From a virus (taxonomy: Duplodnaviria > Heunggongvirae > Uroviricota > Caudoviricetes): a DNA stretch of 64,000 nt. The notes below the pieces were generated by a model. It saw only the letters and a program-made list of their open reading frames with translations, did not search any database and had not been told where the DNA came from. The position numbers were made by a program, and so were the translations under genes. Location: positions 1 through 64,000 of the IMG/VR virus record IMGVR_UViG_3300045988_163275; one strand, 5' to 3'. This document shows positions 2,600 through 59,841 of the stretch, piece by piece (the first letter of the stretch is position 1; the number at the start of each line of letters is the position of its first letter).

Positions 2600-5500
2600 T
2601 TAACTGATGCCCGACATGGAAAATGCGCCACTTCCACGGCTGATTAGCATCACGGGCGAATAAATATGTGTCTGTGATGAACTGGTCACTTTTACCGTAA
2701 CAGCAACAGTTCTTGAGGTAACATTGTTAAAAGCAGCGTAAAGAGTGCCACCGACGCCTGTAGAACTTGTCGAATTAAGATCAGGGTCTCTGTATGTTGT
2801 CCCCTTACCAGTGGTTGCGGTCTTCGTCACTCCATTGCAGGTAAATTGGGCTGCAACAGGGCCGACGCCCCCCGTATATACATTTATTGCCACATAAATA
2901 TTTTTGGGCAATGCAGACGAAGAAGAGTCTGTATATGTCATTGTATATGTGCCGTTGTAACGAACTGAGAAGTCATTGCCCACATACATGTTAGCGACAT
3001 CGCCTACGAAGTGATCTGCTTGTACCGTGCCTCTGAATGTTCCGCTGGTAGCCTGTATTTCTCCTGTGAATTTGCCATTTGTTGCGTAAACGGTGCCTCT
3101 AACAGTTACATTGTTAAACTCTGAGTTCCCGTTTTTATTAATATGCCACCCCGTCATCCCGCTTGAGTAATCGTTGGACTGAATGAAGTTGCCTATTTTG
3201 GCGTTATCAATGGTGCCGTTCTTGATATAAGCTCCGTTCATATAAGCCACACCGGCATCAATAACGAATGGCGTTGTAATTTTCCCATTAACGGAGTTCA
3301 CCAAACCAAAGCGATCTGCCTGCACCAAAAACTGCGATAGACCTGTTGTGTCGATGCCCAACGCTATGCCGGCAACATATTTTTGGCCTCCGCTGGTGGA
3401 GGTTTCCATTTTCAGCGTCCAGGCTGTTGATACCTTCTTGTTCGTATCAGCAATAGCTGTGGCCTGTTGTTGAATTGTTGCTGTATTTCCATCTACTGAT
3501 GCTTTTAAGGTGTCAACTCTCCCACTTAGTGCATTGTCGGCGCTTGTACGCGCAGTCGCTTCAGATGTAATCGCAGCATGAATATCTTTGCTCGTTTGAG
3601 CCTGTAGATTAGTGATATTAGAAGCCAAAGCGGAATCAGCATCAGTTCTGGCTTTCGTCTCTTCAGCTACAGCCGCCTTAATATCCTTGCCCGTTTGACT
3701 CTTCAATGTAGTTATCTGTTGTGCCAAAGATTCGTCGGCAGTTGCTCGGGCGTTTTTTTCTTCAGATATAGCGGCACTAATATCGCCTTCAACTTTGGCT
3801 TGTAACGATAGGACTTCTTTTGAAAGTGCTTCATCGGCACTGGCTCGCGCCTCTTGTTCACTCACAATTGCGGCAGAAATGTCATCGTTAATCTTTGATT
3901 CAAGTTTGGTGATTCTGCTTCCAATAGCATTATCCGCATCTACACGAGCCGTAGTCTCTTCAGTGATTGAAGCTCTGATATCCTCATTTATTTCAGCTCT
4001 AATCTCTTCCATTTTCGTAGCCATTGCGGACATATCATCTGCAAAAGCCTTCTGAGTTGTGGCGATCCTGGCATTGCTCACCATCTGTTTGTGCTGGTCT
4101 TCATCCTGACGCAAAGCTAAATCGATGTTTGTTTTAGCCAATGCCTCAATGTTTGTCGTCACTTCGGCACTGGAGTGCTCGACTTCAGCCACGGTTTTTT
4201 TCATCTCTTCAATGGTGGCCAAACTGCTATCTACAGTTGACTTCATTGCCTCGATTTCTTTCGCGTTCGCCAAGTCGCCTTCGACTCGTGCCTCACGTTC
4301 CTCCGCAACTAAAGCCGATGAATTGTCCAGTGCTGCATTCGCGGCCTCAACCGCTCCAGCAACGGCCTTGTCCTGCTCTGAAACAGTTTCCTTCAACTGA
4401 ATTAATGCGGCATTTGAGTTTTCAACCTCCTTAAGAGCCTCTTCCACCTTGCTGGCAGTATTAGAAACTTCCGTTCTAAGAACGTTTTGGGCTTCTTCAA
4501 TCCGTTGATCGGTCTCAGTAAATTTGTCATCAAGGCTTTTCAGGCTTTCTTCCATCTGCTTGTTGATTACGTCGACGGCTTCCTGCGAGGCTTTGGTGTC
4601 GATTTCCTCAAGCAGTTCCTGCCCCAATTCCGAAGAAGTGATCTTCCCGGTCAGGAAAGACAGAACATCTTTCGTCATCGCCTCAGTGCCTAAATTGGAG
4701 TTAGGCTGGCTCAACATTCCGCGTTTGTTTGCTGCACGAACCCAATAGAACCAAGTTTCGCTATCTCCAAGACCTGCGTGCGTAAAGGTGGTACTGGCTG
4801 CTTCGGCAATTAGTTTTGCAGTGTCCAGGTTGTTGGTCCGGGATGCATACACGTTGATGTGATCGAGGTCGATTGAGTCCGGGTTAACCCAATTCAGAAT
4901 CACGTTGCGGTAGTCGCCCACGGCCGTCAGTGCAGTCGGTGCATCCGGCGGCGTCATCGTCCCCTGAACTTTGTAGACGGTGCTGATAATTTCTGTTTTT
5001 TTACCGTTGAATGAAACCGCATACAGTTGGAAGTCGTAGCGTCCATTCTCCGCGACATTAACGATTTCGTATTGCTCTTCGGTTACACGCGCCGATTGCC
5101 AGTTCGATACATTGTTTGCATCAGAACGTCGCCAACTGATCCAATACTCTGGAGATTTCCCTTCCCATGTTGCAGTCAGTTTTACTGACAGGTTGCCCGG
5201 GCTTGAGAGATAAGTCCCTTCAGTGATTTGCAAATTAGACGGCTTGGAGTAAGTCGGGTCCAATACCGTCGTATTCTGCGGGATAAGCGTTGCACCATTG
5301 TCGATCGCCTCATATTTAGACGGATTGTTTTCAACAGCGGTGATGTCAAAGCTACCCGACGTTTCCCCCTGAGCGATGTTAACGATGCGAACGCGCATAG
5401 GTTCGAGATCTGGTTCTGTAATTGTCCAGACACCGTTCAAAACAGGCGTTTCCGCTGACGACAGGGCTTTTGAAAACGTAACTTTTGTTATATTTTCGCC

Positions 5501-7326: not shown

Positions 7327-7776
7327 TTATCTGCCTGTCTCGTTAGTGGCTTGCGGAGATATGATTTGCGCTATACCGCCCATCATCAGTGACAAACCGA
7401 GAGGTGCTAAAGCAGGCATCATTACCGCCGATACAACCAACAAAGCGGCTCCTACTACCGTCTGAAACCACCCAAAAGCAGAACCGCCGCTTCCTCGCGG
7501 AACAGGGGTAATGCGGATTTTGGCTATGTTGTCAGACTGCCCCATCATCTGATATTCACTCTCGTCCACAGACCACTTGTAGCCCTGTTTATTGGTGATC
7601 TGGATGTGGTATTTGTCGTAGGTTTTGAGATTTCGCTTCATCCAGGCTTTGAATCCGGGGCGATTAGCCTCAATCAAATCCAGAGCCTGCTTGGTGTTGC
7701 GAACTTTCAAATGCCAATGACGACCAAAATGTTTGGCCATAGGGCCGCCAAGTTGCACATGAACTAACTCAGACAC
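7327..7776 (-). CDS. tail assembly protein (lambda I-like)
   Basis: 149 aa; hydrophobic Gly/Ala-rich C-terminus (GGSAFGWFQTVVGAALLVVSAVMMPALAPLGL); sits between K-like and J-like genes. Confidence 0.65.
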   Translation of the reverse strand: MSELVHVQLGGPMAKHFGRHWHLKVRNTKQALDLIEANRPGFKAWMKRNLKTYDKYHIQITNKQGYKWSVDESEYQMMGQSDNIAKIRITPVPRGSGGSAFGWFQTVVGAALLVVSAVMMPALAPLGLSLMMGGIAQIISPQATNETGR

Positions 7777-37741: not shown

Positions 37742-38311
37742 TTAGTTGTTCAGATAGGCATCCGGAACGCGCACATAAAAGTTTCTTTCGCCGGTCAGTT
37801 CCAGAGTAACGTTTATGTCGTTGCCGTTATCCAGCGTAGCCGTCGCTTTATAGAACTTGTCCGTCACCTTGTCCTGAATTGTCACCTTCATACATTTCGG
37901 CGCTGTGGTTCCGTTATTCTCTTTCAGAATGGTCGTTACGAGAGGACAAGCCGCTTCTTCAAGAGCAACCTCTTCCTGGTGTGGGATACCGATGAAGATG
38001 TTACCAGCAAGCAACGCGACGATTACGATAAAAGGAAGTCGACTGCCTTTTGTAACGGTGGCACGTTTCCAGAGATAGACCGGAAGGAGAAATACTCCCC
38101 ACAGGATGGCCGGTGGTTCATACCCTGCATCAGACAATGCCATTCTGTCAGCCACCAGAAAGCCGAGTCCAGCGACTCCACCTATCACTATTGCATAATT
38201 CAAATACTCATCTGGCGGTACTCCAAAGAAGAGAGGCAGTAAAGCTAGAAGCCACGCATAAGCATTATTCAGAGGTTTTGTTTGTTGGTTCTGGGTTTCC
38301 ATCACATCCAT
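37742..38311 (-). CDS. integral membrane protein (candidate exclusion protein)
   Basis: Three predicted TM helices (WLLALLPLFFGV, AIVIGGVAGLGFLV, ILWGVFLLPVYLW, FIVIVALLAGNIFIGI) and a C-terminal soluble domain; last gene of a three-gene early operon. Confidence 0.5.
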   Translation of the reverse strand: MDVMETQNQQTKPLNNAYAWLLALLPLFFGVPPDEYLNYAIVIGGVAGLGFLVADRMALSDAGYEPPAILWGVFLLPVYLWKRATVTKGSRLPFIVIVALLAGNIFIGIPHQEEVALEEAACPLVTTILKENNGTTAPKCMKVTIQDKVTDKFYKATATLDNGNDINVTLELTGERNFYVRVPDAYLNN

Positions 38312-51241: not shown

Positions 51242-51717
51242 TACGACCTTCTGTATACGATCTGCAAAAAGCCAGGCTCATCCTCATTTGCACGTTGGGT
51301 ATAAGCCGTTTCGACTGGTACGAACCCTAAAGAACGCATCATTGGCGCCGGGAAGAACGCATCCGCGCCCGACACATCCACGCCAATATGCGACAGCCAG
51401 ATCTCTTCAACGTGTGGCATAAAGAGCGAGTAAATCTGCCCGCCACCAATCACCCAGACCGGATCTGGTAGTTTTAAAACGTCATCGATGCCAGCGGGGT
51501 AGAAACCATTGGGGATATAGCCACGAGAGCGCGTCAAAACGAGGTTATGGCGCTCTGGCAGCGGGCGTTTGAGACTTTCCATCGTCTTACGTCCCATCAC
51601 GACAGTGGCGTTTTTGGTGAGTTGTTTGAACAGTTTCAGATCGGTCGGGCAACGCCAGGGAAGTTCGTTGCCAATGCCGATTTCATAGTTGCGGCCGACA
51701 GCTGCAATCATCTTCAT
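51241..51717 (-). CDS. folA: dihydrofolate reductase
   Basis: FolA-like pattern (MIAAVGRNYEIGIGNELPWRCPTDLKLFKQLT...VVMGRKT...VWVIGGGQIY). Confidence 0.8.
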   Translation of the reverse strand: MKMIAAVGRNYEIGIGNELPWRCPTDLKLFKQLTKNATVVMGRKTMESLKRPLPERHNLVLTRSRGYIPNGFYPAGIDDVLKLPDPVWVIGGGQIYSLFMPHVEEIWLSHIGVDVSGADAFFPAPMMRSLGFVPVETAYTQRANEDEPGFLQIVYRRS

Positions 51718-52127
51718 TGGCTTACCTCATAGATGGTTGGTCGCTGGTGAGAATCTGCCAGCGCAGAACGCAGACGCGGATCATGAACCAGTGCGGCGAT
51801 AAGTAAGTCGCCTTTGTGCTCTGCCAGCGTGCGCTTGATATGGGTTTCAAAACTGACACCGCGCGGAACCAGGTGGAGCCAGTCATAATCAATGCCGAAG
51901 TCCTTCAGCCAGCGCTTGGTTGGGCCTTCGAGCGCTTCCGGACGACTACTGATAAGCACCACTTCAGCACCGGAGCGAGCAAAACCACGCAACATGCGGC
52001 TGGTGGGAAAGATGAGTTCATCACCGGCAATGAGAGCGCCTGCATCCGCATCAGGCACTGCTTTGCGATGGCTGGCTCTCGCCAGCACACCTTCAATTTC
52101 ACACAACACATACATCCCTCTGGCCAT
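51714..52127 (-). CDS. hypothetical protein, possibly HAD-like nucleotidase
   Basis: Start at MARGMYVLCEIEGVL, 2 nt after the TS stop; HAD-like first-motif position has E instead of D, so assignment is weak. Confidence 0.3.
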   Translation of the reverse strand: MARGMYVLCEIEGVLARASHRKAVPDADAGALIAGDELIFPTSRMLRGFARSGAEVVLISSRPEALEGPTKRWLKDFGIDYDWLHLVPRGVSFETHIKRTLAEHKGDLLIAALVHDPRLRSALADSHQRPTIYEVSQ

Positions 52128-53419: not shown

Positions 53420-54290
53420 AATTATTTTTTACCATCTCGTAAAGAGATGAGGACTTCGCCTTCTCAACAAAGCAAGTCAGATCCACATCGCTGTAGGTTG
53501 GGGATTTGAGGATCTTGCCATCAGAAACTCTGAAGCCGATCATCATGTCAGTCCCTTCAGCATGGCGGAACCCCAGATCTTCCTTATCGTATTTGCAATT
53601 CTCTACCGCCACACGACGCTCTTCGGCGTCAGCCGGCCACAGCTTGGTCATGTTGGAACGGTGGATTTCTGCCACCAGCTCAACAATATCGATTCCGAGA
53701 AAATCAGCCAGACGGTAGGTCATCATGCAGGCAACGTAGATTTTGTTCATCACGCGGCGCAGCTCCTGCACCAATTCGGAATCGCTTATCGGCTTCGCTT
53801 CAAGTTTGTCAGCCAGCGCATTCAGCATTAATGCAGCTTCTTTTGCTTCTTCAAACGGGATAGCCATATCGTCAAAGACCGTGTTGCCCGGAACCATGAT
53901 GGTGTGGATGAAGCGATCAACACTCTGCTCTTGGGTGTAGTAACTCATGCCCGTCGAGATGCCGCCTTTGATGGCCACCATTGTGCCGACGCCCACGTAA
54001 AGGAAGTCAGCCATCGCGTCCAGCAGTGCCGTCATATCCCCATTTTTGGCTGCCGGGATGCCCTCGGTAACTGCTTCTTCGTGGATCAGCTTGGCACGCA
54101 GACGCAGTAATGCCGGATCTGGAATGGCACGGCGTGGGTGCTGAAACAGTGTGTGGAACTGGTCAACCATCAGGTAGATGCTTTCCGTTGTCTTGCCGAA
54201 ACCGGGATTCAACTCGTAAGGCTCTGGTTTAAACCCCACGAGTTTGTCTGCGGCAAGTTTCAGATGATCGGTCAGTTTCGTAAATTTCAT
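53412..54290 (-). CDS. hypothetical protein, possibly MazG-like NTP pyrophosphohydrolase
   Basis: All-alpha segments with acidic motifs (RAKLIHEEAVTE; EAKEAALMLNALADKLE) reminiscent of MazG/HisE-type enzymes; weak. Confidence 0.3.
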   Translation of the reverse strand: MKFTKLTDHLKLAADKLVGFKPEPYELNPGFGKTTESIYLMVDQFHTLFQHPRRAIPDPALLRLRAKLIHEEAVTEGIPAAKNGDMTALLDAMADFLYVGVGTMVAIKGGISTGMSYYTQEQSVDRFIHTIMVPGNTVFDDMAIPFEEAKEAALMLNALADKLEAKPISDSELVQELRRVMNKIYVACMMTYRLADFLGIDIVELVAEIHRSNMTKLWPADAEERRVAVENCKYDKEDLGFRHAEGTDMMIGFRVSDGKILKSPTYSDVDLTCFVEKAKSSSLYEMVKNNCK

Positions 54291-54496
54291 GTTTTCTTTC
54301 CTTTAGACTTCTCTTGATACGCCAATTTTGACCCAGCAGCGCCAGGCCACAAAGTGGTTAAACTCGGCTTAGAGGTATTCGAACTGGCTCAGGCCAGTGC
54401 AATCGACAGCGAACTTTGTCAGCGCTTCATGCAACTGGCAGCGGCTCGGTGGGCGTTACGTTTTACGATGCTTATTATGTGTAGCCCAATTAAAAA

Positions 54497-54516
54497 GACC
54501 ACTATATATAGTGGTC
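54497..54516. repeat. perfect 20-bp palindrome GACCACTATATATAGTGGTC
   Basis: Perfect inverted repeat whose arms (CCACTATA) match the repA iteron core; about 7 kb from the origin. Confidence 0.5.
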
Positions 54517-54524
54517 TCATGGTA

Positions 54525-54545
54525 ATAGATAAGCACTTACCTATC
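54525..54545. repeat. TAAGTA-type palindrome
   Basis: atagataagcacttacctatc; downstream of the RuvC-like stop. Confidence 0.45.
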
Positions 54546-54555
54546 AATTATCAAC

Positions 54556-55125
54556 TTATAAAATTCCAGCAAGAACATCGCGAACCTGACGGAATTGATC
54601 AGTTTGCATACCGGTGTAAATCGATGCGACAGCGTCCGCAAGGTGCTCGTTTTTATTCACCAGCACTTCCTTGCCCGATTGCTTCCGGCGCAACCACGGG
54701 GCGTTTGGCTGCTTCTGCGTAGCCCACTGAATGATCTCTTCTTTCGACGTAGTCAGCTTATTCCCGACATAGTACTTAATCTCGTTTGGCGTGACCTGTA
54801 TCAGTGGCTTATCCACACACGCCAGTACGCCAAGACAACCACCATAAGAAACCATCGCTCTAGCAGATTGACTGCCTACTGGCAGTTCACAGAACACTAA
54901 ATGAACTTGGTCAATCAGTGGCTTAATACCACGCCAAATCTCGTTCAACCGCCGCATATCGTCACTGTTAACGCGAACTTGCTTTTTCGTATCACCAGCT
55001 TTCGTCTCAATGAGATGCAACTTATTGACCTGCAATGCACCTGAATCCAGTTCTATTTCTCCGATGGCAACGCCAAAATTTGACAGAGATGGATCGAGAC
55101 CTGCAACTTTGATTACTTTTTTCAC
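54556..55125 (-). CDS. RuvC-like Holliday junction resolvase
   Basis: N-terminal GLDPSLSNFGVAIGE (first catalytic Asp), FCELP, C-terminal EHLADAVASIY, consistent with the RuvC/RNase H-like fold. Confidence 0.6.
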   Translation of the reverse strand: MKKVIKVAGLDPSLSNFGVAIGEIELDSGALQVNKLHLIETKAGDTKKQVRVNSDDMRRLNEIWRGIKPLIDQVHLVFCELPVGSQSARAMVSYGGCLGVLACVDKPLIQVTPNEIKYYVGNKLTTSKEEIIQWATQKQPNAPWLRRKQSGKEVLVNKNEHLADAVASIYTGMQTDQFRQVRDVLAGIL

Positions 55126-55898
55126 TCTGTGACCTCCATTTCAACAAAATGCGGTAGATTGTGCTCTTCGATAAATCGCTTACGCGCTAAGTAAGCCTCC
55201 AATTCATCGTGACATTGATACAAGAAGACACACTCTCCTTTCCACACAACTCTAGCAACCCAAACCTTGTTCGTTTTGCAGTAATGAACGCCAGTAAACT
55301 TCGACGTACTACCATCCACTTTCCCTTGTTTATTTGCACTCTGGACGTGCTTGTCAGCCCACCTCAGATTCCCTGGTTCATATCCCTTGCTGGAGTCGAT
55401 GCGATCAAGCGTAACCCCCTCTACAACTCTCTCCGTATCGGAAAACGGATAGCCCTCAAGTACGGAAACATACCTGTAAAAATTATCAAAATCCTCGAAC
55501 CCGGTGGCGTAAGATATTCCCCGTCCACCATACTTTTCGTATCTTGCCCGATTTGGATTGTTACAACGCGCCTTCATACTTGCCCAAGTCCAGTACAGAG
55601 GGTTTTCCATGACTTTATATTCTGCGTTCTGGCGATATATCCCGGCACATTTATTTGAGCAGGTCTTCTGTCTGACTCGCTTCGCGTTCTCAAGGTTTGC
55701 AGAGAATCGATGACCGCAGATAAAGCATTCAAGCTCAACAATTCGGCGCTTACGCTCCCTTGAATCAAATATTGGCTCCAACTCTCTAATGAAATTTCCG
55801 TCGAAATCGTCGGGATTGATAGGTTTCGCATCTTTTCTTAATTTTGTCGCTCTTCCTCTCACTTTTGGTCTCCTTACCACGTAGCCCAGGTTGGGCAT
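55122..55898 (-). CDS. HNH homing endonuclease with AP2 DNA-binding domain
   Basis: HNH_3-like motif (LDRIDSSKGYEPGNLRWADKHVQSANK) plus AP2-like C-terminus (KFTGVHYCKTNKVWVARVVWKGECVFLYQCHDELEAYLARKRF). Confidence 0.7.
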   Translation of the reverse strand: MPNLGYVVRRPKVRGRATKLRKDAKPINPDDFDGNFIRELEPIFDSRERKRRIVELECFICGHRFSANLENAKRVRQKTCSNKCAGIYRQNAEYKVMENPLYWTWASMKARCNNPNRARYEKYGGRGISYATGFEDFDNFYRYVSVLEGYPFSDTERVVEGVTLDRIDSSKGYEPGNLRWADKHVQSANKQGKVDGSTSKFTGVHYCKTNKVWVARVVWKGECVFLYQCHDELEAYLARKRFIEEHNLPHFVEMEVTE

Positions 55899-56620
55899 TC
55901 CATTAGTTTCTGTTCAAGTGTCTTCTCCGGCTCGCGAGTTGGCGGCTTCGGAATGTCGTTAACTACGTGAATGCCATCGTTGATCAGAACGCCTGCAGCA
56001 ATATCTGCATCAATCATGCTCTGGCCGATGAAATGCCGCATGATGTCAATAAGTTGGCACGCAGCCTTTTCATTCGCGTTGAATACGTGGGGGAGGAGAA
56101 CTTCAATAATCGCTACTTCACATCCCTTCTCGTAAAAGCAGAGTTTCGCCCGCTTTGAAATTGGCGCGTGCCGGTCATAGTCAACAGAGAAGCTGGCGAA
56201 GGCAGCACCCGGCATTGCAACGTGATCCGCGCGTGCGTTAGCGTGTCGAATCAGATTAGTGAATGCGGTGCTGATGTGCGTCTCCATTGCATTGAAGAGT
56301 GCATTTTCTTGGATGTTCAGCGTTCCGGTTTCAGGAATCACAACGAACCCCGGCCCAGAATGTGGGAGATATCCACCTTCCGTAAATGGATTAATAAGGA
56401 TCGGCGCAGTGCTTCCTGACGGCAGATTAGCCAAGCTCGGCATCAAAGGAGTCGATGACAATAGATTGGTTAATACCGAGAACTGGTTGTCGCTGATGTT
56501 TACGTTTTTCCACAAAAGTGCAGGCGGAGTTACTTTTGCTGTATGGTTGTTTATCAGCTTTATAGACTGCATCACGGCAAACATCTGCAAAAACTGCGTG
56601 CGGCTCAAGTTAAACGACAT
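55874..56620 (-). CDS. hypothetical protein
   Basis: 248 aa ORF between SbcC-like and HNH genes. Confidence 0.4.
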   Translation of the reverse strand: MSFNLSRTQFLQMFAVMQSIKLINNHTAKVTPPALLWKNVNISDNQFSVLTNLLSSTPLMPSLANLPSGSTAPILINPFTEGGYLPHSGPGFVVIPETGTLNIQENALFNAMETHISTAFTNLIRHANARADHVAMPGAAFASFSVDYDRHAPISKRAKLCFYEKGCEVAIIEVLLPHVFNANEKAACQLIDIMRHFIGQSMIDADIAAGVLINDGIHVVNDIPKPPTREPEKTLEQKLMECPTWATW

Positions 56621-58526
56621 AGCTGCGCCCCTCTTTAACTTCGACAGTGATAATTTCCCGGAACCACGATTTCATCTCTTTGTGGGAGATGATCATCACT
56701 GTGCCACGTTCACGCGCTTTGGCTTCCAGAATCCCCATGAGACGCTCCAGACCGGCTGTGTCGAGCGCGTCGTCAATTTCATCACCGATAAATAGCTCGA
56801 TATTCTTACTGGCGCGACTGGCAACCAGATCCTGCAAAGCCAGAGAGCACGCAATACGTACCTTACGCTTCTCACCACCAGACAAAGTCTGGAAGGATTT
56901 GCTGGAGCCTGTTTTGATTACGCTGATATTGAATTTGTCGCGATACTCACCTTTCTTCGTTGTCTCCATTGTCGACCATTCGGCAACGATATTGCCGTCC
57001 GACAGCGTGTTGAGATACTCCGCAGTCCTGATGTTCAGGAAAGGCGTAACGGAGGTCAGGATGTGTGAACGCACGCCTGCTGGGGAGTAAACCTGGCGGG
57101 CCTTCTCCAGCAACAGAGCCTGTTTCTGAATGCTCTTTAACTCATTTTTAAGTACTGCATGATTAGATTTATTGGCAGCCAGGTTGTCTTCATGGCGCTT
57201 AATAACGGCCAGAAATGGGTTTGCTTCCGCCATGATGCGATTCACTTCAGTACGCGCCCGCGCAACCATCGCTTCGACGGCCACAACTTCACGTTCGCGA
57301 TGACGCAGCGCACTTAGCTCATTGGTCAGGCGTTCTATTGTGGAGATGATTTCTGAGACGTCGGGTGTGGCTGCGACCAGTGCAGACTCGATACCGAGCG
57401 CTTTCTCAAGACGAGCCTTGTGTTGAGCCACTGCCGCTGCTGATGTCTGCGCAAGGCCGATCTCATTGCGCGCTTGTTCAATGAAGCTCTCCTTCACCGT
57501 GGATAAATCTTCTTCGCAGTAGGGCTTTCCGCACGTAATGCAGGGTGCCCCGATCTTTGTGCTGACCTCTTCAGCTTTGGTTTTAAACGAGCGAGCACGG
57601 TTTATCGACTCGTTCTGTGCCGCTTCTGAAGTACGGATGCTTGAGCGGATCTCAGTAATAGCACTGCGCACCTTCAGCAGTTTGGCGTCATGCTCTTCTT
57701 TGGAGGCCAGCTTGCTGCGTTCGCCAGCAATCGCGTTTTCCGTATCACGGATCTGTTCCGGCAGCGAGCGAATTTCCATCTCGACTTCAGACAGTGTTAC
57801 CTCCGCGCCAGCCAAATCGGCTCGGGCCTTGTCCAGACGCTCGCCGCGATCGCGCTCCCAGCTTTCAGAGGACGCTTTGGCCGCCTCAATCTCTGACTGT
57901 GCAGTCTCGATAAGCGTGAGACAGGCGTCCATTTTGGATTTGGTAACGTCCATACGTGCGGCAGCTGCATTAGCACGCTCGCGGGCAATGGCATAGGCTC
58001 GCGTCAATCGGTCGACGCCAGCAGCTTCTTCAACGATGGTTTTGAGGCTCTTGTCGGACATACCGGGCAGATCTGGCATCGCTTCCTGACTGGCGTAGAT
58101 GGACGCCATGAACACCTCTTTCGATGCCCCAATCAGACGTTCTACGAACGTCTGTGTCAGCGTGTCCTTGCCTTTGGTCATATCACCGTCTTCACCACGG
58201 ACGATTAGTCGGTTCTTGAACTCTTTGTGTTTACGATGGCGAATGATCGCGTATTTCTTACCTTCGTCTTCAACTGTAACCATCACACGGCAGTTCTTCT
58301 CATGGCCCGTCGACAGCACGTCATCGCCTTTGACGCCATGTGCAGTCTCACCATACAGACACCACATTAAGCTATTCATCAGAGTGGATTTCCCGGCGCC
58401 ATTGCTGGCAGCAGACGTATCGCCACTGTTCACACCCTGGATCAGCACCAGTCCACGCTGGTCTAACTCGACTTCTGCGCTGGCGATTGCCATAAAATTT
58501 TCAACCTGGAGCTTTAAAAACTTCAT
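56610..58526 (-). CDS. sbcC: SbcC/Rad50-like recombination ATPase
   Basis: Start moved to MKFLKLQVENF (E. coli SbcC begins MKILSLRLKNL); Walker A (NGAGKST), long coiled coil with CxxC hook-like (CITCGKPYC), C-terminal signature (LSGGEKRKVRIACSLAL) and Walker B (LFIGDEID). Confidence 0.8.
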   Translation of the reverse strand: MKFLKLQVENFMAIASAEVELDQRGLVLIQGVNSGDTSAASNGAGKSTLMNSLMWCLYGETAHGVKGDDVLSTGHEKNCRVMVTVEDEGKKYAIIRHRKHKEFKNRLIVRGEDGDMTKGKDTLTQTFVERLIGASKEVFMASIYASQEAMPDLPGMSDKSLKTIVEEAAGVDRLTRAYAIARERANAAAARMDVTKSKMDACLTLIETAQSEIEAAKASSESWERDRGERLDKARADLAGAEVTLSEVEMEIRSLPEQIRDTENAIAGERSKLASKEEHDAKLLKVRSAITEIRSSIRTSEAAQNESINRARSFKTKAEEVSTKIGAPCITCGKPYCEEDLSTVKESFIEQARNEIGLAQTSAAAVAQHKARLEKALGIESALVAATPDVSEIISTIERLTNELSALRHREREVVAVEAMVARARTEVNRIMAEANPFLAVIKRHEDNLAANKSNHAVLKNELKSIQKQALLLEKARQVYSPAGVRSHILTSVTPFLNIRTAEYLNTLSDGNIVAEWSTMETTKKGEYRDKFNISVIKTGSSKSFQTLSGGEKRKVRIACSLALQDLVASRASKNIELFIGDEIDDALDTAGLERLMGILEAKARERGTVMIISHKEMKSWFREIITVEVKEGRSYVV

Positions 58527-58714
58527 ATAACACCTCTGATATCGTGTGTTAACTTTTGACCATCTTTCAATCTGAACTCCGTATGCGCGGGGAAGGATCT
58601 GCGATTCAATAAGCCTTTTCTGGTTAGCCTTCCAAGATAAAACGCTACGGGATTTCCTCCTGAAGGGTATGGCTTGTGAAACATAACCGTCTGGCCTTTT
58701 TGAAGTTTTTTCAT
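58523..58714 (-). CDS. hypothetical small protein between sbcD and sbcC
   Basis: About 63 aa from MKKLQKGQTV; stop overlaps the sbcC start (ATGA). Confidence 0.25.
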   Translation of the reverse strand: MKKLQKGQTVMFHKPYPSGGNPVAFYLGRLTRKGLLNRRSFPAHTEFRLKDGQKLTHDIRGVI

Positions 58715-58755
58715 CACGATGGCAAACTCTCGAAAGCTCCCATAATAACGTTGCC

Positions 58756-59841
58756 TCACACAGCCTCCGCACTCTCTGCTTCGGTCAAGATCTCCTGACA
58801 CAGTATGTCCAGCTTGCTCAGGTCGAAGCCACCGTCAGTGTCGTGAACGATCTTGCAGTACGCCGCAACGGACTCTCCCAGGCTGTCAATTTTGCTGGTT
58901 TCCGCAGTACTGGCAGCGCCTTCCATCATCGATGCCTTGCGAATGAAGTTGCAGACGACACCCTTCGCGCCCATTGTTTTCAGGACATTCTGAAGTTTGA
59001 TGCCTTCTTCATCGCTCTCAACAACGGCACGGAAGCGCACGTAGTTGCCGCGAATCTGATCGTCATCTACATCGTCCTCAAGGTTCACGAATTTAGGTGC
59101 CGAGGTTTCGTGGTGAGTGAATGAGCCGTCCGGTTTGACGATCATGAAGCCGGCCAGTGAACCAACATCCCCCCAATTCTGGTGTGTCAGCGCCCCGATA
59201 CTTACCACTCCAGGCAGCACTTCTTTGTGGTTGTGGTAGTGCCCGGACAACAATAAACGGAAGCCGATATCTTTCAGTTCCTGTGCGTCGATGCCGACAT
59301 CGGGCATGGTGGGGATCGCTTTGTTGATTGAGGTATGTACAACAACATCATGGTTGTCACCATCCAGCCCGGAACGCAGCGTTTTGAGATCGCTGATAAG
59401 TTCTGCGTGGTTATTACGCCAGCTAATCAGATGGACGGTTACGTCGCCCATTTTGATGGAATGAGGACGTTTGCCGCAGACGATTTCCACACCGATTGAG
59501 CGCAGAGAGGCTGCTGCATTGGCGCTGTATACGGAATCGTTGGTTTCGAGGTCGTGGTTGCCAGCCAGCATTACCACCTTGAGACCCAACTCTTTGATGA
59601 TCCACTCGTAAGTTTCGGTCACGAAATGCAGAACGGAAGGTGATATAGCACCGCGAACATGGAAGGTATCACCAGCTACCAGCATGTGCTTACAGCCAGC
59701 AGCTTTCATCGCTTTGGCCGCCTCCTTCGTAGCGTCCAATTGGATCTCCAGCCGAGAGTTAAGCCCGTCAGCGTTTGTTGTCGCAAAAGCATCCCAACGA
59801 TGATAATGGGGATCTGATATTACCCCGTATGGCAATGTCAT
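58756..59841 (-). CDS. sbcD: SbcD/Mre11-like nuclease
   Basis: Calcineurin-like phosphoesterase motifs (VISDPHYH; AGDTFH; LAGNHD; GHYH). Confidence 0.8.
   Translation of the reverse strand: MTLPYGVISDPHYHRWDAFATTNADGLNSRLEIQLDATKEAAKAMKAAGCKHMLVAGDTFHVRGAISPSVLHFVTETYEWIIKELGLKVVMLAGNHDLETNDSVYSANAAASLRSIGVEIVCGKRPHSIKMGDVTVHLISWRNNHAELISDLKTLRSGLDGDNHDVVVHTSINKAIPTMPDVGIDAQELKDIGFRLLLSGHYHNHKEVLPGVVSIGALTHQNWGDVGSLAGFMIVKPDGSFTHHETSAPKFVNLEDDVDDDQIRGNYVRFRAVVESDEEGIKLQNVLKTMGAKGVVCNFIRKASMMEGAASTAETSKIDSLGESVAAYCKIVHDTDGGFDLSKLDILCQEILTEAESAEAV

Follow-up and report, generated by a model that had tools for sequence, protein, structure and literature searches.

A putative homing endonuclease gene with a predicted PacI-like nuclease domain in an SSU5-like phage-plasmid

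An E. coli phage-plasmid carries a gene for a putative nuclease between two recombination genes. Is this a mobile homing endonuclease gene, and if so, what kind of nuclease does it encode? The gene lies in what we will call the window, which is the whole stretch of 64,000 nt that we analyzed and which represents an SSU5-like phage-plasmid. From comparisons of alleles and protein families, we estimate a probability of about 70% that this is a free-standing homing endonuclease gene (HEG) of the phage-plasmid, with a putative nuclease as its product.

Results and Discussion

The gene and its neighbors

The ORF list confirms the minus-strand ORF at 55122..55898 that a preliminary description of this DNA had reported; it encodes 258 amino acids from its first ATG. 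The 258-aa version, which begins at ATG 55898, is in RefSeq as a "hypothetical protein" (WP_063091564.1), and the product matches PHROG families annotated as "HNH endonuclease" (phrog_374 at 2e-35). The real start codon is likely GTG 55862, so that the most likely coding sequence of this homing-endonuclease-type gene is 55122..55862 (minus strand, 246 amino acids). This GTG is 11 nt past the stop codon of the upstream gene and is preceded by an SD sequence (GGAGACC). The equivalent codon of pTy004_01 is ATG, and the homolog P0003 has its start codon at the equivalent position. Because the SD sequence, the ATG in pTy004, and the N-termini of homologs agree, we preferred GTG 55862 and dropped ATG 55898.

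If translation starts at GTG 55862, then the ORF overlaps the RuvC-like gene only, by 4 nt (GTGA). The ORF had been described as overlapping both neighbors; the overlap with the RuvC-like start is real, but the 25-nt overlap on the upstream side is an artifact of choosing the longest ORF. The RuvC-like resolvase gene (54556..55125, minus strand) is intact and encodes 189 amino acids (phrog_159, 1.7e-53). Its GTG start codon overlaps the endonuclease stop codon, and its SD sequence (GGAGG) lies within the 3' end of the endonuclease gene. At the upstream junction of the insertion is an 11-nt spacer (55863..55873, minus strand), which contains the SD sequence GGAGACCAAAA after the upstream stop codon (alignment A1). 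In alleles with an empty site, the SD sequence of this spacer drives the ATG of the RuvC-like gene.

The upstream flanking gene (55874..56620, minus strand) matches phrog_2117, whose function is unknown, and genes for SbcC/Rad50-like and Mre11-like proteins are found farther upstream. In pTy004_01, the RuvC gene is adjoined by nrdA. More generally, nrdAB adjoins the locus in some SSU5-like plasmids and is absent from others, an example of the mosaicism of these plasmids elsewhere. When we searched the window with tblastn, we accepted no paralogs of the ORF: the matches at 38057-38194 and 7540-7686 (E > 1) are in unrelated or non-coding frames and are due to chance.

Empty and decayed alleles

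The preliminary description had proposed a comparison with replicons that lack the insertion, and such empty-site alleles turned up in several lineages. SSU5 and the Citrobacter plasmid pCF20 have an 11-nt spacer and no endonuclease gene at this site, and pHCM2, pECOH89, and one Klebsiella plasmid have spacers of 9-12 nt. No perfectly empty allele was seen in the window's own lineage (at least 99% identity), so the comparison of filled and empty sites crosses lineages that differ by 2-6%.

Among ~440 related plasmids in PLSDB, 41 records contain the cassette (defined below) at 99% identity or above, and 30 of these cover at least 80% of it. Another 348 records match the RuvC part alone, at 60-80% identity. 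Of 228 complete E. coli genomes with such a plasmid, 28 match the locus at 90% identity or above; 24 of the 28 cover at least 80% of the query, and they include at least one deletion remnant.

Some copies of the endonuclease gene have decayed. We found an internal deletion of 418 bp in at least seven records and another of 570 bp in two records. These two differing deletions are in plasmids of the pLAO18 type and the pNT1F34 type, and internal deletions of the gene arose independently at least twice.

A cassette that includes part of the RuvC-like gene

The mobile unit is larger than the endonuclease gene. It is a cassette of ~1.03 kb (54834..55862), which comprises the endonuclease gene and nt 1 to ~292 of the RuvC-like gene (54834..55125, minus strand). 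This RuvC-like 5' tract is strongly diverged and foreign, as judged by comparing the window to pCF20 and pTy004 to pHCM2. Relative to the empty-site plasmid pCF20, the RuvC-like gene of the window has 120 mismatches in nt 1-300 but just 4 in nt 301-570. In other words, the divergence from empty-site alleles is ~40% in the 5' tract and 1.5% in the remainder of the gene. At 44.3%, the GC content of the cassette tract is lower than that of the window (49.5%) or of its counterpart in SSU5 (53.7%). Both the sequence and the comparison of the junctions indicate that the RuvC-like gene is a chimera, with a foreign 5' part and a resident 3' part. On the other side of the insertion, there is no diverged tract: up to the junction itself, the phrog_2117 gene differs no more than the backbone ordinarily does.

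The same tract is found in a different backbone. The S. Typhi plasmid pTy004_01 is of the pHCM2 type: its upstream gene has 10 mismatches out of 747 nt to pHCM2 and 41 to the window. Within the RuvC-like tract, pTy004 has just 1 mismatch in 292 nt to the window but 121 to its sister plasmid pHCM2. The endonuclease genes of the window and pTy004_01 (741 nt) differ at 9 codons; 5 of these differences are synonymous and 4 are not (one is the start codon), which is too few for dN/dS. By these comparisons, the 1-kb cassette has evidently moved between backbones of the E. coli type and the S. Typhi pHCM2 type. The RuvC-like 5' tract travels with the endonuclease gene, presumably either as a co-conversion tract or as an allele that would resist cleavage.

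As a possible donor of the RuvC 5' tract, we considered the distant HEG-carrying contig L006, and we rejected it: the identity is only ~60% at the nucleotide level and 58% at the amino acid level, and its RuvC 5' segment is no closer to the window's than those of HEG-less lineages are. We found no donor of intermediate similarity in PLSDB. Homologs of the endonuclease do occur outside of the close relatives: a distant SSU5-like contig has a 60%-identical homolog at the same locus, and other homologs are at different loci in N4-like phages.

The description of the ORF as a recent, mobile insertion of the homing endonuclease type that marks localized recombination is strongly supported by the empty sites, the presence of the cassette in two backbones, the sharply bounded diverged flank, and the decayed copies.

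Domain content of the protein

The ORF has no hits in Pfam at E ≤ 1 (including HNH_3, PF13392, and AP2), and it has none in NCBIfam. Profile comparisons and an AF2 model (pLDDT 87) point to three modules, from the N- to the C-terminus: a CapR-like zinc ribbon, one PacI-like beta-beta-alpha-metal nuclease domain, and an AP2 domain. (We number residues by the 258-aa version.) The preliminary description had labeled it HNH_3 plus AP2; the AP2-type domain stands, but the nuclease domain does not fit the HNH_3 model and appears to be PacI-like or of the IPA-HNH type. The description did not mention the N-terminal module.

That module is a CapR-like zinc ribbon at residues ~24-90 (55629..55829, minus strand), with the pattern C-x2-C...C-x3-C. 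Although the ORF itself has no direct match to the Pfam model for CapR (PF21817), the family profile A2 aligns with the Pfam-confirmed CapR domain of P0042 (hhalign, 94% probability, E = 9e-8). There is also a weak match in PDB to the zinc ribbon of S27e (E = 0.0015), and AF2 places a three-stranded sheet in this region (E36-68, pLDDT about 90). The CapR-like zinc ribbon is presumably a DNA-binding module.

The AP2-type DNA-binding domain is C-terminal, at residues ~198-247 (55158..55307, minus strand), and comprises three strands and then a helix. This fold, with a three-stranded sheet packed on a helix, matches solved AP2/ERF domains, and the AP2 domain was the only match found by Foldseek in PDB. 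The homologs P0028 and P0030 have precomputed matches to Pfam's AP2 (PF00847), and P0071 and P0100 have matches below the threshold (3e-5). Searching PDB with the whole-protein profile gave suggestive hits, to I-HmuI (E = 0.29) and to the AP2 domain of TEM1 (E = 0.14).

The predicted active site

The putative nuclease domain, a beta-beta-alpha-metal (His-Me finger) domain, is at residues ~95-192 (55323..55616, minus strand). It has the motif L-D-R-x-D...G-Y-x-P-x-N...Q..N (LDRID...GY.PGN), and the core of the motif is 162-VTLDRIDSSKGYEPGNLRWADKHVQSANK-190. The codons of interest are D165 (55404-55406), R166 (55401-55403), Y173 (55380-55382), N177 (55368-55370), and N189 (55332-55334), all on the minus strand. 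In the AF2 model, the core forms two strands and a helix (E162-166, E178-182, and H183-189). The sole conserved cysteine of this central domain is C112; the four cysteines of the ribbon belong to the CapR-like module.

The claim of an HNH_3-type motif is not supported. Besides the lack of a match to Pfam's HNH_3, R166 is opposite the histidine of I-HmuI's VVDHKDG motif in the hhalign alignment. That histidine is the general base, and its position is occupied by arginine in all 24 aligned homologs and in 250 of 250 modules. R166, Y173, and N177 are invariant, while D165, Q186, and N189 are each conserved to 90% or more across the alignment. The HNH-type beta-beta-alpha core is present, with an invariant asparagine in the second strand (N177) and nearly invariant Q186 and N189 in the helix. 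The beta-hairpin motif fits PacI instead: Y173, whose position is tyrosine in 235 of 250 modules, aligns with the tyrosine of the GYSP motif of PacI. PacI is also the best match for the fold of the nuclease domain, and fold similarity to the structure of PacI was found. By hhalign, the alignment to PacI spans 25 columns at 40% identity, with a pairwise E value of 0.002 and a probability of only 14%. (The sequences of PacI, all 142 residues, and of residues 53-120 of I-HmuI were verified against PDB.) When we compared the profile of the central domain to PDB sequences with hmmsearch, the matches were at chance level and included neither PacI nor I-HmuI. Given its motif, we classify the predicted nuclease domain as a histidine-less PacI type, not as HNH_3.

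In PacI, the metal is held by Asp and Asn, and the base is a Tyr (PMC4081073, PMC5714182). By analogy, Tyr173 would be the base or the nucleophile, and Asp165 would hold the metal together with Asn189 (or Gln186).

A large protein family

A word-index search identified 56 homologs of the ORF's product. Using the A2 profile, which spans all three modules, we found 191,784 cluster representatives at E ≤ 1e-3. Many members of the family have 2-5 tandem modules, some of them with degenerate motifs, and no model in Pfam or NCBIfam matched the central module in the proteins that we scanned. By hhalign, the family profile also aligns with an IPA-HNH homing endonuclease of phage ICP1, gp59, at 88% probability and E = 3e-6. 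The alignment spans 107 columns, among them the W..M..RC motif, the beta-hairpin, and the first part of AP2. BLASTP found no significant similarity to gp59. Judged on gp59, and at the level of profiles, the protein is a remote homolog of the IPA-HNH homing endonucleases of ICP1.

A proposed mechanism for homing

We propose that homing would begin when a plasmid or phage with the gene and another that lacks it come together in one cell. A site within the 5' part of the HEG-less partner's RuvC-like gene, or beside that part, would be recognized by the zinc ribbon and the AP2 domain, and the nuclease domain would cut there. The cut is predicted to fall between nt 1 and ~300 of the RuvC-like gene, where there are two candidate regions: the conserved TCAATGAGCAACTT (nt 37-50) and a block at nt 262-292. 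Repair of the break with the HEG-carrying copy as template would then bring in the endonuclease gene along with the recoded RuvC 5' segment, and this segment would make the carrier immune to its own enzyme. Upon insertion, the endonuclease gene would be translated from the ribosome-binding site that had served the RuvC-like gene, for which it would provide a replacement inside its own 3' end. With this replacement, the chimeric RuvC-like gene is intact and is probably still translated. Once the gene is fixed in a lineage, it would no longer be needed and would decay.

There are counterpoints to homing. A 1-kb cassette could also pass from one co-resident phage-plasmid to another by ordinary homologous recombination, with no nuclease involved. 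Also, the canonical general-base histidine is missing from the nuclease domain, and the one tested PacI-like phage HNH endonuclease that we came across in publications is not listed with those that reportedly reduced plaquing in an exclusion assay (PMC12724721).

Alternative explanations

If the nuclease-like domain is catalytically dead, then the protein could be a domesticated, sequence-specific DNA-binding repressor that combines a zinc ribbon with AP2, much like CapR of PLE or the CasPR anti-CRISPR repressors, and the cassette would have spread by ordinary recombination or for its regulatory benefit. The arginine in place of the catalytic histidine is family-wide; CapR and AP2 domains are known to jointly form transcriptional silencers in phages (bioRxiv 10.64898/2026.02.23.707548); base-less His-Me fingers bind DNA, with the Smad MH1 domain as an example (PMC5714182); and tandem modules with some degenerate motifs are common in the family. 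But binding alone would require none of the PacI-type catalytic set, which has been kept (Arg, the loop Tyr, and the beta-2 Asn are invariant, and Asp and the helix Gln and Asn are conserved at 90% or above), and PacI, with the same set of residues, is an active enzyme. Also, the published CasPR proteins contain nothing nuclease-like between their CapR and AP2 domains, and a patchy distribution, decay by deletion, and a recoded stretch in the neighboring gene form the pattern of a selfish element. We consider a repressor unlikely. An even poorer fit is plain mosaicism of lineages, with an ordinary accessory ORF next to an old RuvC 5' allele that has no link to it. SSU5-like plasmids are indeed mosaic, as with nrdAB beside this locus, but the diverged tract begins exactly at the ORF, ends sharply after 292 nt, and is linked to the ORF in two otherwise differing backbones. 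Furthermore, all copies are at least 99% identical despite backbones that are 2-6% apart, and the protein's family consists of nuclease plus AP2 proteins that are known as homing endonucleases. We view mosaicism as very improbable.

Alternatively, the protein might be an active nuclease that is kept mainly as a weapon against SSU5-like competitors (for marker or partial exclusion), or as a helper in recombination alongside the SbcCD-like and RuvC-like proteins, with homing as a by-product. The gene is inside a module for recombination and nucleotide metabolism and its translation is coupled to that of the RuvC-like gene, and a distant lineage has retained the 60%-identical homolog at this locus. 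HNH homing endonucleases are able to exclude HEG-less phages (PMC12724721). However, most relatives lack the gene, and the repeated internal deletions in otherwise intact plasmids speak against strong selection for it. We think a primary role of this kind is quite unlikely. It would be compatible with homing in any case, since exclusion is the same cleavage viewed from the loser's side. We favor a homing endonuclease gene.

Implications

This locus might be the first natural evidence that a histidine-less, Tyr-type (PacI-like) beta-beta-alpha-metal domain serves as a homing endonuclease, and the family might amount to a major class of mobile nucleases that has been overlooked. This is a tentative proposal, and we lean against it at present. 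Its basis is a natural experiment, with filled, empty, transferred, and decayed alleles and a recoded flank of 292 nt. If it is correct, then the overlooked class would include ~190,000 cluster representatives, many of them fused to CapR-like zinc ribbons and AP2, and it could plausibly be the stock from which CapR plus AP2 repressors, such as the CasPR anti-CRISPRs, arose by loss of the nuclease module.

The locus would also be a concrete case of homing in phage-plasmids, which are medically relevant as carriers of resistance genes between Enterobacteriaceae, and each move of the cassette would rewrite part of a resolvase gene. For annotation, the protein goes from "hypothetical" in RefSeq, "HNH" in PHROGs, and HNH_3 in the preliminary description to a predicted PacI-like, Tyr-type nuclease that is flanked by two DNA-binding modules. 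The analysis also draws attention to a very large family of proteins; in those scanned, the central module had no match in Pfam or NCBIfam. The natural alleles specify both the substrate DNA and the resistant control DNA for a cleavage assay.

Comparison to known systems

The IPA-HNH homing endonucleases of ICP1 (Barth et al. 2023, PMC10448857) likewise combine an atypical HNH-like domain that Pfam's HNH_3 misses with a C-terminal AP2 domain. They too are encoded by free-standing genes beside replication and recombination genes, at the boundaries of genetic exchange (PMC10448857). The window's family is invariant for D-R...Y...N; gp59, in contrast, has L-D-K and no beta-2 Asn. In ICP1, the CapR-like zinc ribbon accompanies T5orf172 endonucleases instead of IPA-HNH; here, it is N-terminal to the nuclease domain. 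And the host element is a lytic phage in that system but a temperate phage-plasmid here.

PacI (PDB 3ldy/3m7k) belongs to group 20 of the His-Me fingers (Jablonska et al. 2017). Its hairpin motif is GVDRSDSFEGYSPQNARLA, as compared to TLDRIDSSKGYEPGNLRWA here. In both, Arg replaces the general-base His and there is a Tyr in the omega loop; PacI uses this Tyr for catalysis, as base or nucleophile (PMC4081073, PMC5714182). PacI itself is a homodimeric restriction enzyme of 142 amino acids with two Cys4 zinc sites, an 8-bp palindromic target, and neither an AP2 domain nor a CapR-like module. The alpha-helical part of our protein (NLRW...Q..N) is more similar to I-HmuI. HNH-AP2 proteins of the HNH_3 or I-HmuI type (Magnani et al. 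2004; His-Me finger group 2) share the order of nuclease and then AP2 and are encoded by free-standing phage genes, and the half-motif NLRW(a/v)t...N aligns with residues 65-102 of I-HmuI. They differ in that our protein does not match HNH_3 even at E ≤ 1 and has Arg where the catalytic His stands.

The CapR or CasPR repressors (PF21817; bioRxiv 10.64898/2026.02.23.707548) resemble our protein in having a CapR-like zinc ribbon and AP2 in one phage protein. They block transcription and have no nuclease-like domain, whereas here a conserved PacI-like motif lies between the two binding modules.

In phage T4, the free-standing endonucleases SegF, SegG, and MobE carry out intron-less homing, with co-conversion of the flanking genes. 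These enzymes are of the GIY-YIG or classical HNH types and are from lytic T-even phages, and both cleavage and co-conversion have been measured. The putative nuclease in the window is of neither type, and its host element is a temperate phage-plasmid. What the systems have in common is a gene between two conserved genes, a precise empty site in HEG-less relatives, and a co-inherited, diverged flank of the neighboring gene. This flank suggests that the cut site would be some distance into the RuvC-like gene and that the carrier may have a self-resistant allele.

The endonuclease gene and its start codon

The ORF at 55122..55898 (minus strand, 258 amino acids) was found exactly where the preliminary description placed it, in a SSU5-like phage-plasmid of E. 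coli. Many IncFIB plasmids in PLSDB and RefSeq are 99.7% identical to the window across the endonuclease region, and RefSeq labels the product "hypothetical protein". Downstream of the ORF is a RuvC-like resolvase gene (54556..55125; phrog_159, 1.7e-53), and upstream is a gene of unknown function (55874..56620; phrog_2117). Genes for a SbcC/Rad50-like ATPase and a Mre11-like phosphoesterase lie farther upstream.

The ORF was described as overlapping both neighbors. On the downstream side, its stop codon does share nucleotides with the RuvC-like gene's GTG start (GTGA), but the upstream overlap probably results from choosing the first ATG. Twelve codons past that ATG there is a GTG (55862), 11 nt beyond the upstream stop and preceded by a Shine-Dalgarno sequence (GGAGACC). 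The S. Typhi copy has ATG instead of this GTG and is annotated as starting there, the closest non-identical homolog has its N-terminus at this position, and residues 1-20 of our AlphaFold2 model are low-confidence. We therefore take the gene to be 55122..55862 (minus strand, 246 amino acids); residue numbers below refer to the 258-residue form. The SbcC/Rad50-like gene (56610..58772, minus strand) also has a longest ORF that is probably overlong: 720 amino acids from a GTG, versus 638 (1,917 nt) as annotated in relatives. Its first ~82 codons, which overlap the region of the next small upstream gene, are probably untranslated.

A mobile cassette with empty, filled, and decayed alleles

The preliminary description proposed a recent homing-endonuclease insertion and called for comparison with insertion-free relatives. 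Such empty-site alleles exist. Phage SSU5 and Citrobacter pCF20 have the same 11-nt spacer between the upstream stop and the ATG of the RuvC-like gene, with no gene between, and the corresponding spacer measures 9-12 nt in S. Typhi pHCM2, E. coli pECOH89, and a Klebsiella plasmid, again with no intervening gene.

To delimit the insertion, we compared the RuvC-like gene to that of pCF20, which has the empty site and the same gene order. Its nt 1-300 contain 120 mismatches and the other 270 nt contain 4; the divergence breaks off between nt 292 and 309 (window ~54817-54834). The codon differences (39 synonymous and 38 non-synonymous) leave the frame and the conserved motifs intact. Upstream of the insertion, comparison with the empty alleles showed no diverged tract: homology continues up to the start codon. 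The endonuclease gene and the first ~292 nt of the RuvC-like gene form a GC-poor cassette of ~1.03 kb (54834..55862). GC content is 45.5% in the endonuclease gene and 44.3% in the 5' part of RuvC, as compared to 49.5% for the whole window and 53.7% for the 5' part of SSU5's RuvC.

The S. Typhi plasmid pTy004_01 provides the decisive evidence. It has a pHCM2-like backbone, in which nrdA adjoins the RuvC-like gene, 10 mismatches (of 747) separate the upstream gene from that of pHCM2 and 41 from that of the window, and the 3' part of RuvC has 5 mismatches to pHCM2. Yet its 292-nt RuvC segment has 1 mismatch to the window and 121 to pHCM2, and its endonuclease gene has 9 differing codons from the window's over 741 nt. 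One and the same ~1-kb cassette has therefore been transferred between distinct backbones, and the points of exchange lie no more than a few tens of nucleotides from its ends.

Across PLSDB, blastn with the cassette gave 41 records at 99% identity or above, 30 of which cover at least 80% of it; a further 348 records match only the RuvC part, at 60-80%. Such a plasmid is present in 228 of 5,426 complete E. coli genomes. The endonuclease locus was matched (90% identity or above) in 28 of these 228, and 24 of the 28 matches cover at least 80% of the query, although at least one deletion remnant is counted among the 24. We found two distinct internal deletions of the endonuclease gene in otherwise near-identical plasmids: a 418-bp deletion of the pLAO18 type, which takes out the start codon and N-terminal half (at least 7 records), and a 570-bp deletion of the pNT1F34 type (2 records). 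Both retain the adjoining RuvC allele. Another near-identical E. coli plasmid (NZ_CP101235.1, 106240-110576) has an IS3-family transposase within the 3-kb region around the locus.

The window carries one copy of the endonuclease gene. A 60%-identical homolog occupies the same locus in a much more distant SSU5-like metagenomic contig, but with just ~60% identity in RuvC, that contig is not the donor. Other homologs are found in N4-like marine phages, at unrelated loci.

A second presence/absence polymorphism directly adjoins the locus. In SSU5, pHCM2, pTy004, pECOH89, and the Klebsiella relative, a ~3.5-kb nrdA-nrdB segment separates the MazG-like gene from the RuvC-like gene; the window's lineage and pCF20 lack it. 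The site is ~54411-54435, within the intergenic region 54291-54555: window 53893-54411 corresponds to 1-523 of the SSU5 locus and 54435-55008 to 4001-4576, with short stubs of nrdA and nrdB left. Also nearby, at ~51259-51735 (minus strand; placed from positions 2960-3436 of the locus in the near-identical plasmid pYLMB53a), is a gene annotated there as dfrA51, a trimethoprim-resistant dihydrofolate reductase. It adjoins thymidylate synthase in the phage nucleotide-metabolism module. dfrA50 and dfrA51 in phage-plasmids are the subject of a published paper (PMC12217456).

A nuclease domain without the histidine

Pfam and NCBIfam scans of the ORF gave no match even at E ≤ 1; PHROGs assigns it to families labelled HNH endonuclease. 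The AlphaFold2 model, built from 24 homologs, is confident (mean pLDDT 87) and has three modules. Residues ~24-90 form a zinc ribbon (CxxC...CxxxC), and the family profile aligns at 94% probability to a relative's CapR homology domain, which Pfam confirms. Residues ~95-192 (window 55323-55616, minus strand) comprise a helical region and then a beta-beta-alpha unit with the motif VTLDRIDSSKGYEPGNLRWADKHVQSANK. The C-terminal domain is of the AP2 type, as originally described.

Among the homologs, R111, Y123, G127, R166, Y173, and N177 are invariant and W105, C112, N114, P115, D165, W180, Q186, and N189 are nearly so. In a profile alignment to I-HmuI, R166 is opposite the His of VVDHKDG, which we take to be the general base of I-HmuI. 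In 250 central modules from 204 family members, this position is always Arg (230 D-R, 20 E-R, no D-H), and the loop Tyr is present in 235. PacI is an active enzyme in which the metal is held by Asp and Asn, and an omega-loop Tyr takes the place of the His (PMC4081073, PMC5714182). The label "HNH_3-type" should thus be replaced: the nuclease domain belongs to the same superfamily but is His-less and PacI-like.

Alternative explanations and a proposed mechanism

A non-cutting CapR+AP2 repressor, like PLE CapR or CasPRs, would account for the missing His, but we consider it unlikely, as it leaves the conserved Asp/Tyr/Asn set and the selfish-element population pattern unexplained. That the nuclease is kept mainly for competition or exclusion seems quite improbable, and such a role would go together with homing, not stand against it. 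Plain mosaicism is very unlikely: it gives no account of why, in two backbones, the ORF is tightly linked to a diverged flank with sharp boundaries. With empty, filled, and decayed alleles, and the same cassette in two backbones, this is a real, well-delimited, and recently mobile homing-endonuclease-type cassette, whose cleavage activity is predicted.

We propose that the zinc ribbon and the AP2 domain would recognize the allele that lacks the endonuclease gene. The cut would fall on the side of the insertion point where RuvC lies, since the diverged tract is one-sided and immunity requires the carrier's sequence to differ from the target. By analogy to PacI, the chemistry may be performed by Tyr173, Asp165, and Asn189 (or Gln186). 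Repair from the carrier would then copy in the endonuclease gene and the recoded 5' segment of RuvC.

In a scan for stretches of at least 12 nt that are invariant among four lineages without the endonuclease gene, only RuvC nt 37-50 qualified (TCAATGAGCAACTT, encoding the DPSMSNF motif, which presumably holds the catalytic Asp). The window has 6 mismatches there. Both lineages that carry the endonuclease gene share changes in nt 262-292. These two segments are hypothetical candidates for the target. The endonuclease gene draws on the ribosome-binding site that formerly served RuvC and supplies RuvC with a new one (GGAGG) inside its 3' end, so the RuvC-like gene probably stays expressed.

Relationship to known endonucleases

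The same fold is found in many phage proteins: BFVD yielded 150 matches (E ≤ 1e-3), whose names vary between HNH endonuclease, AP2/ERF protein, and DNA-binding protein, and tblastn found relatives in 1,060 phage records. A profile of all three modules matched 191,784 cluster representatives (E ≤ 1e-3). Many members have two to five tandem modules; in some with two modules, P0071 and P0100 among them, the D-R motif is gone from the first module. Among family proteins P0057-P0204, the central zinc-ribbon-associated module (W..M..RC.NP..Y..YGGRGI...LDRID..GY.P.N.RW) is not matched by any Pfam or NCBIfam model. A 32%-identical homolog from Staphylococcus phage Lacachita (25512-26117; 87% of the protein covered), annotated as an AP2 domain protein, overlaps a "Group I catalytic intron" feature, which suggests that some family members are intron-encoded.

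In lactococcal phages, "PacI-like" free-standing HNH endonucleases were noted as rare; the single example assayed does not belong to the endonucleases reported to lower plaquing (PMC12724721). The IPA-HNH homing endonucleases of phage ICP1 have atypical HNH domains, missed by Pfam's HNH_3, that are fused to a C-terminal AP2 domain (Barth et al., PMC10448857). BLASTP gave no significant match to one of these, ICP1 gp59, but our family profile matches it (88% probability, E = 3e-6, 107 columns). With its domain assignment and start codon corrected, the cassette's endonuclease belongs to these known IPA-HNH / PacI-like HNH-AP2 endonucleases.
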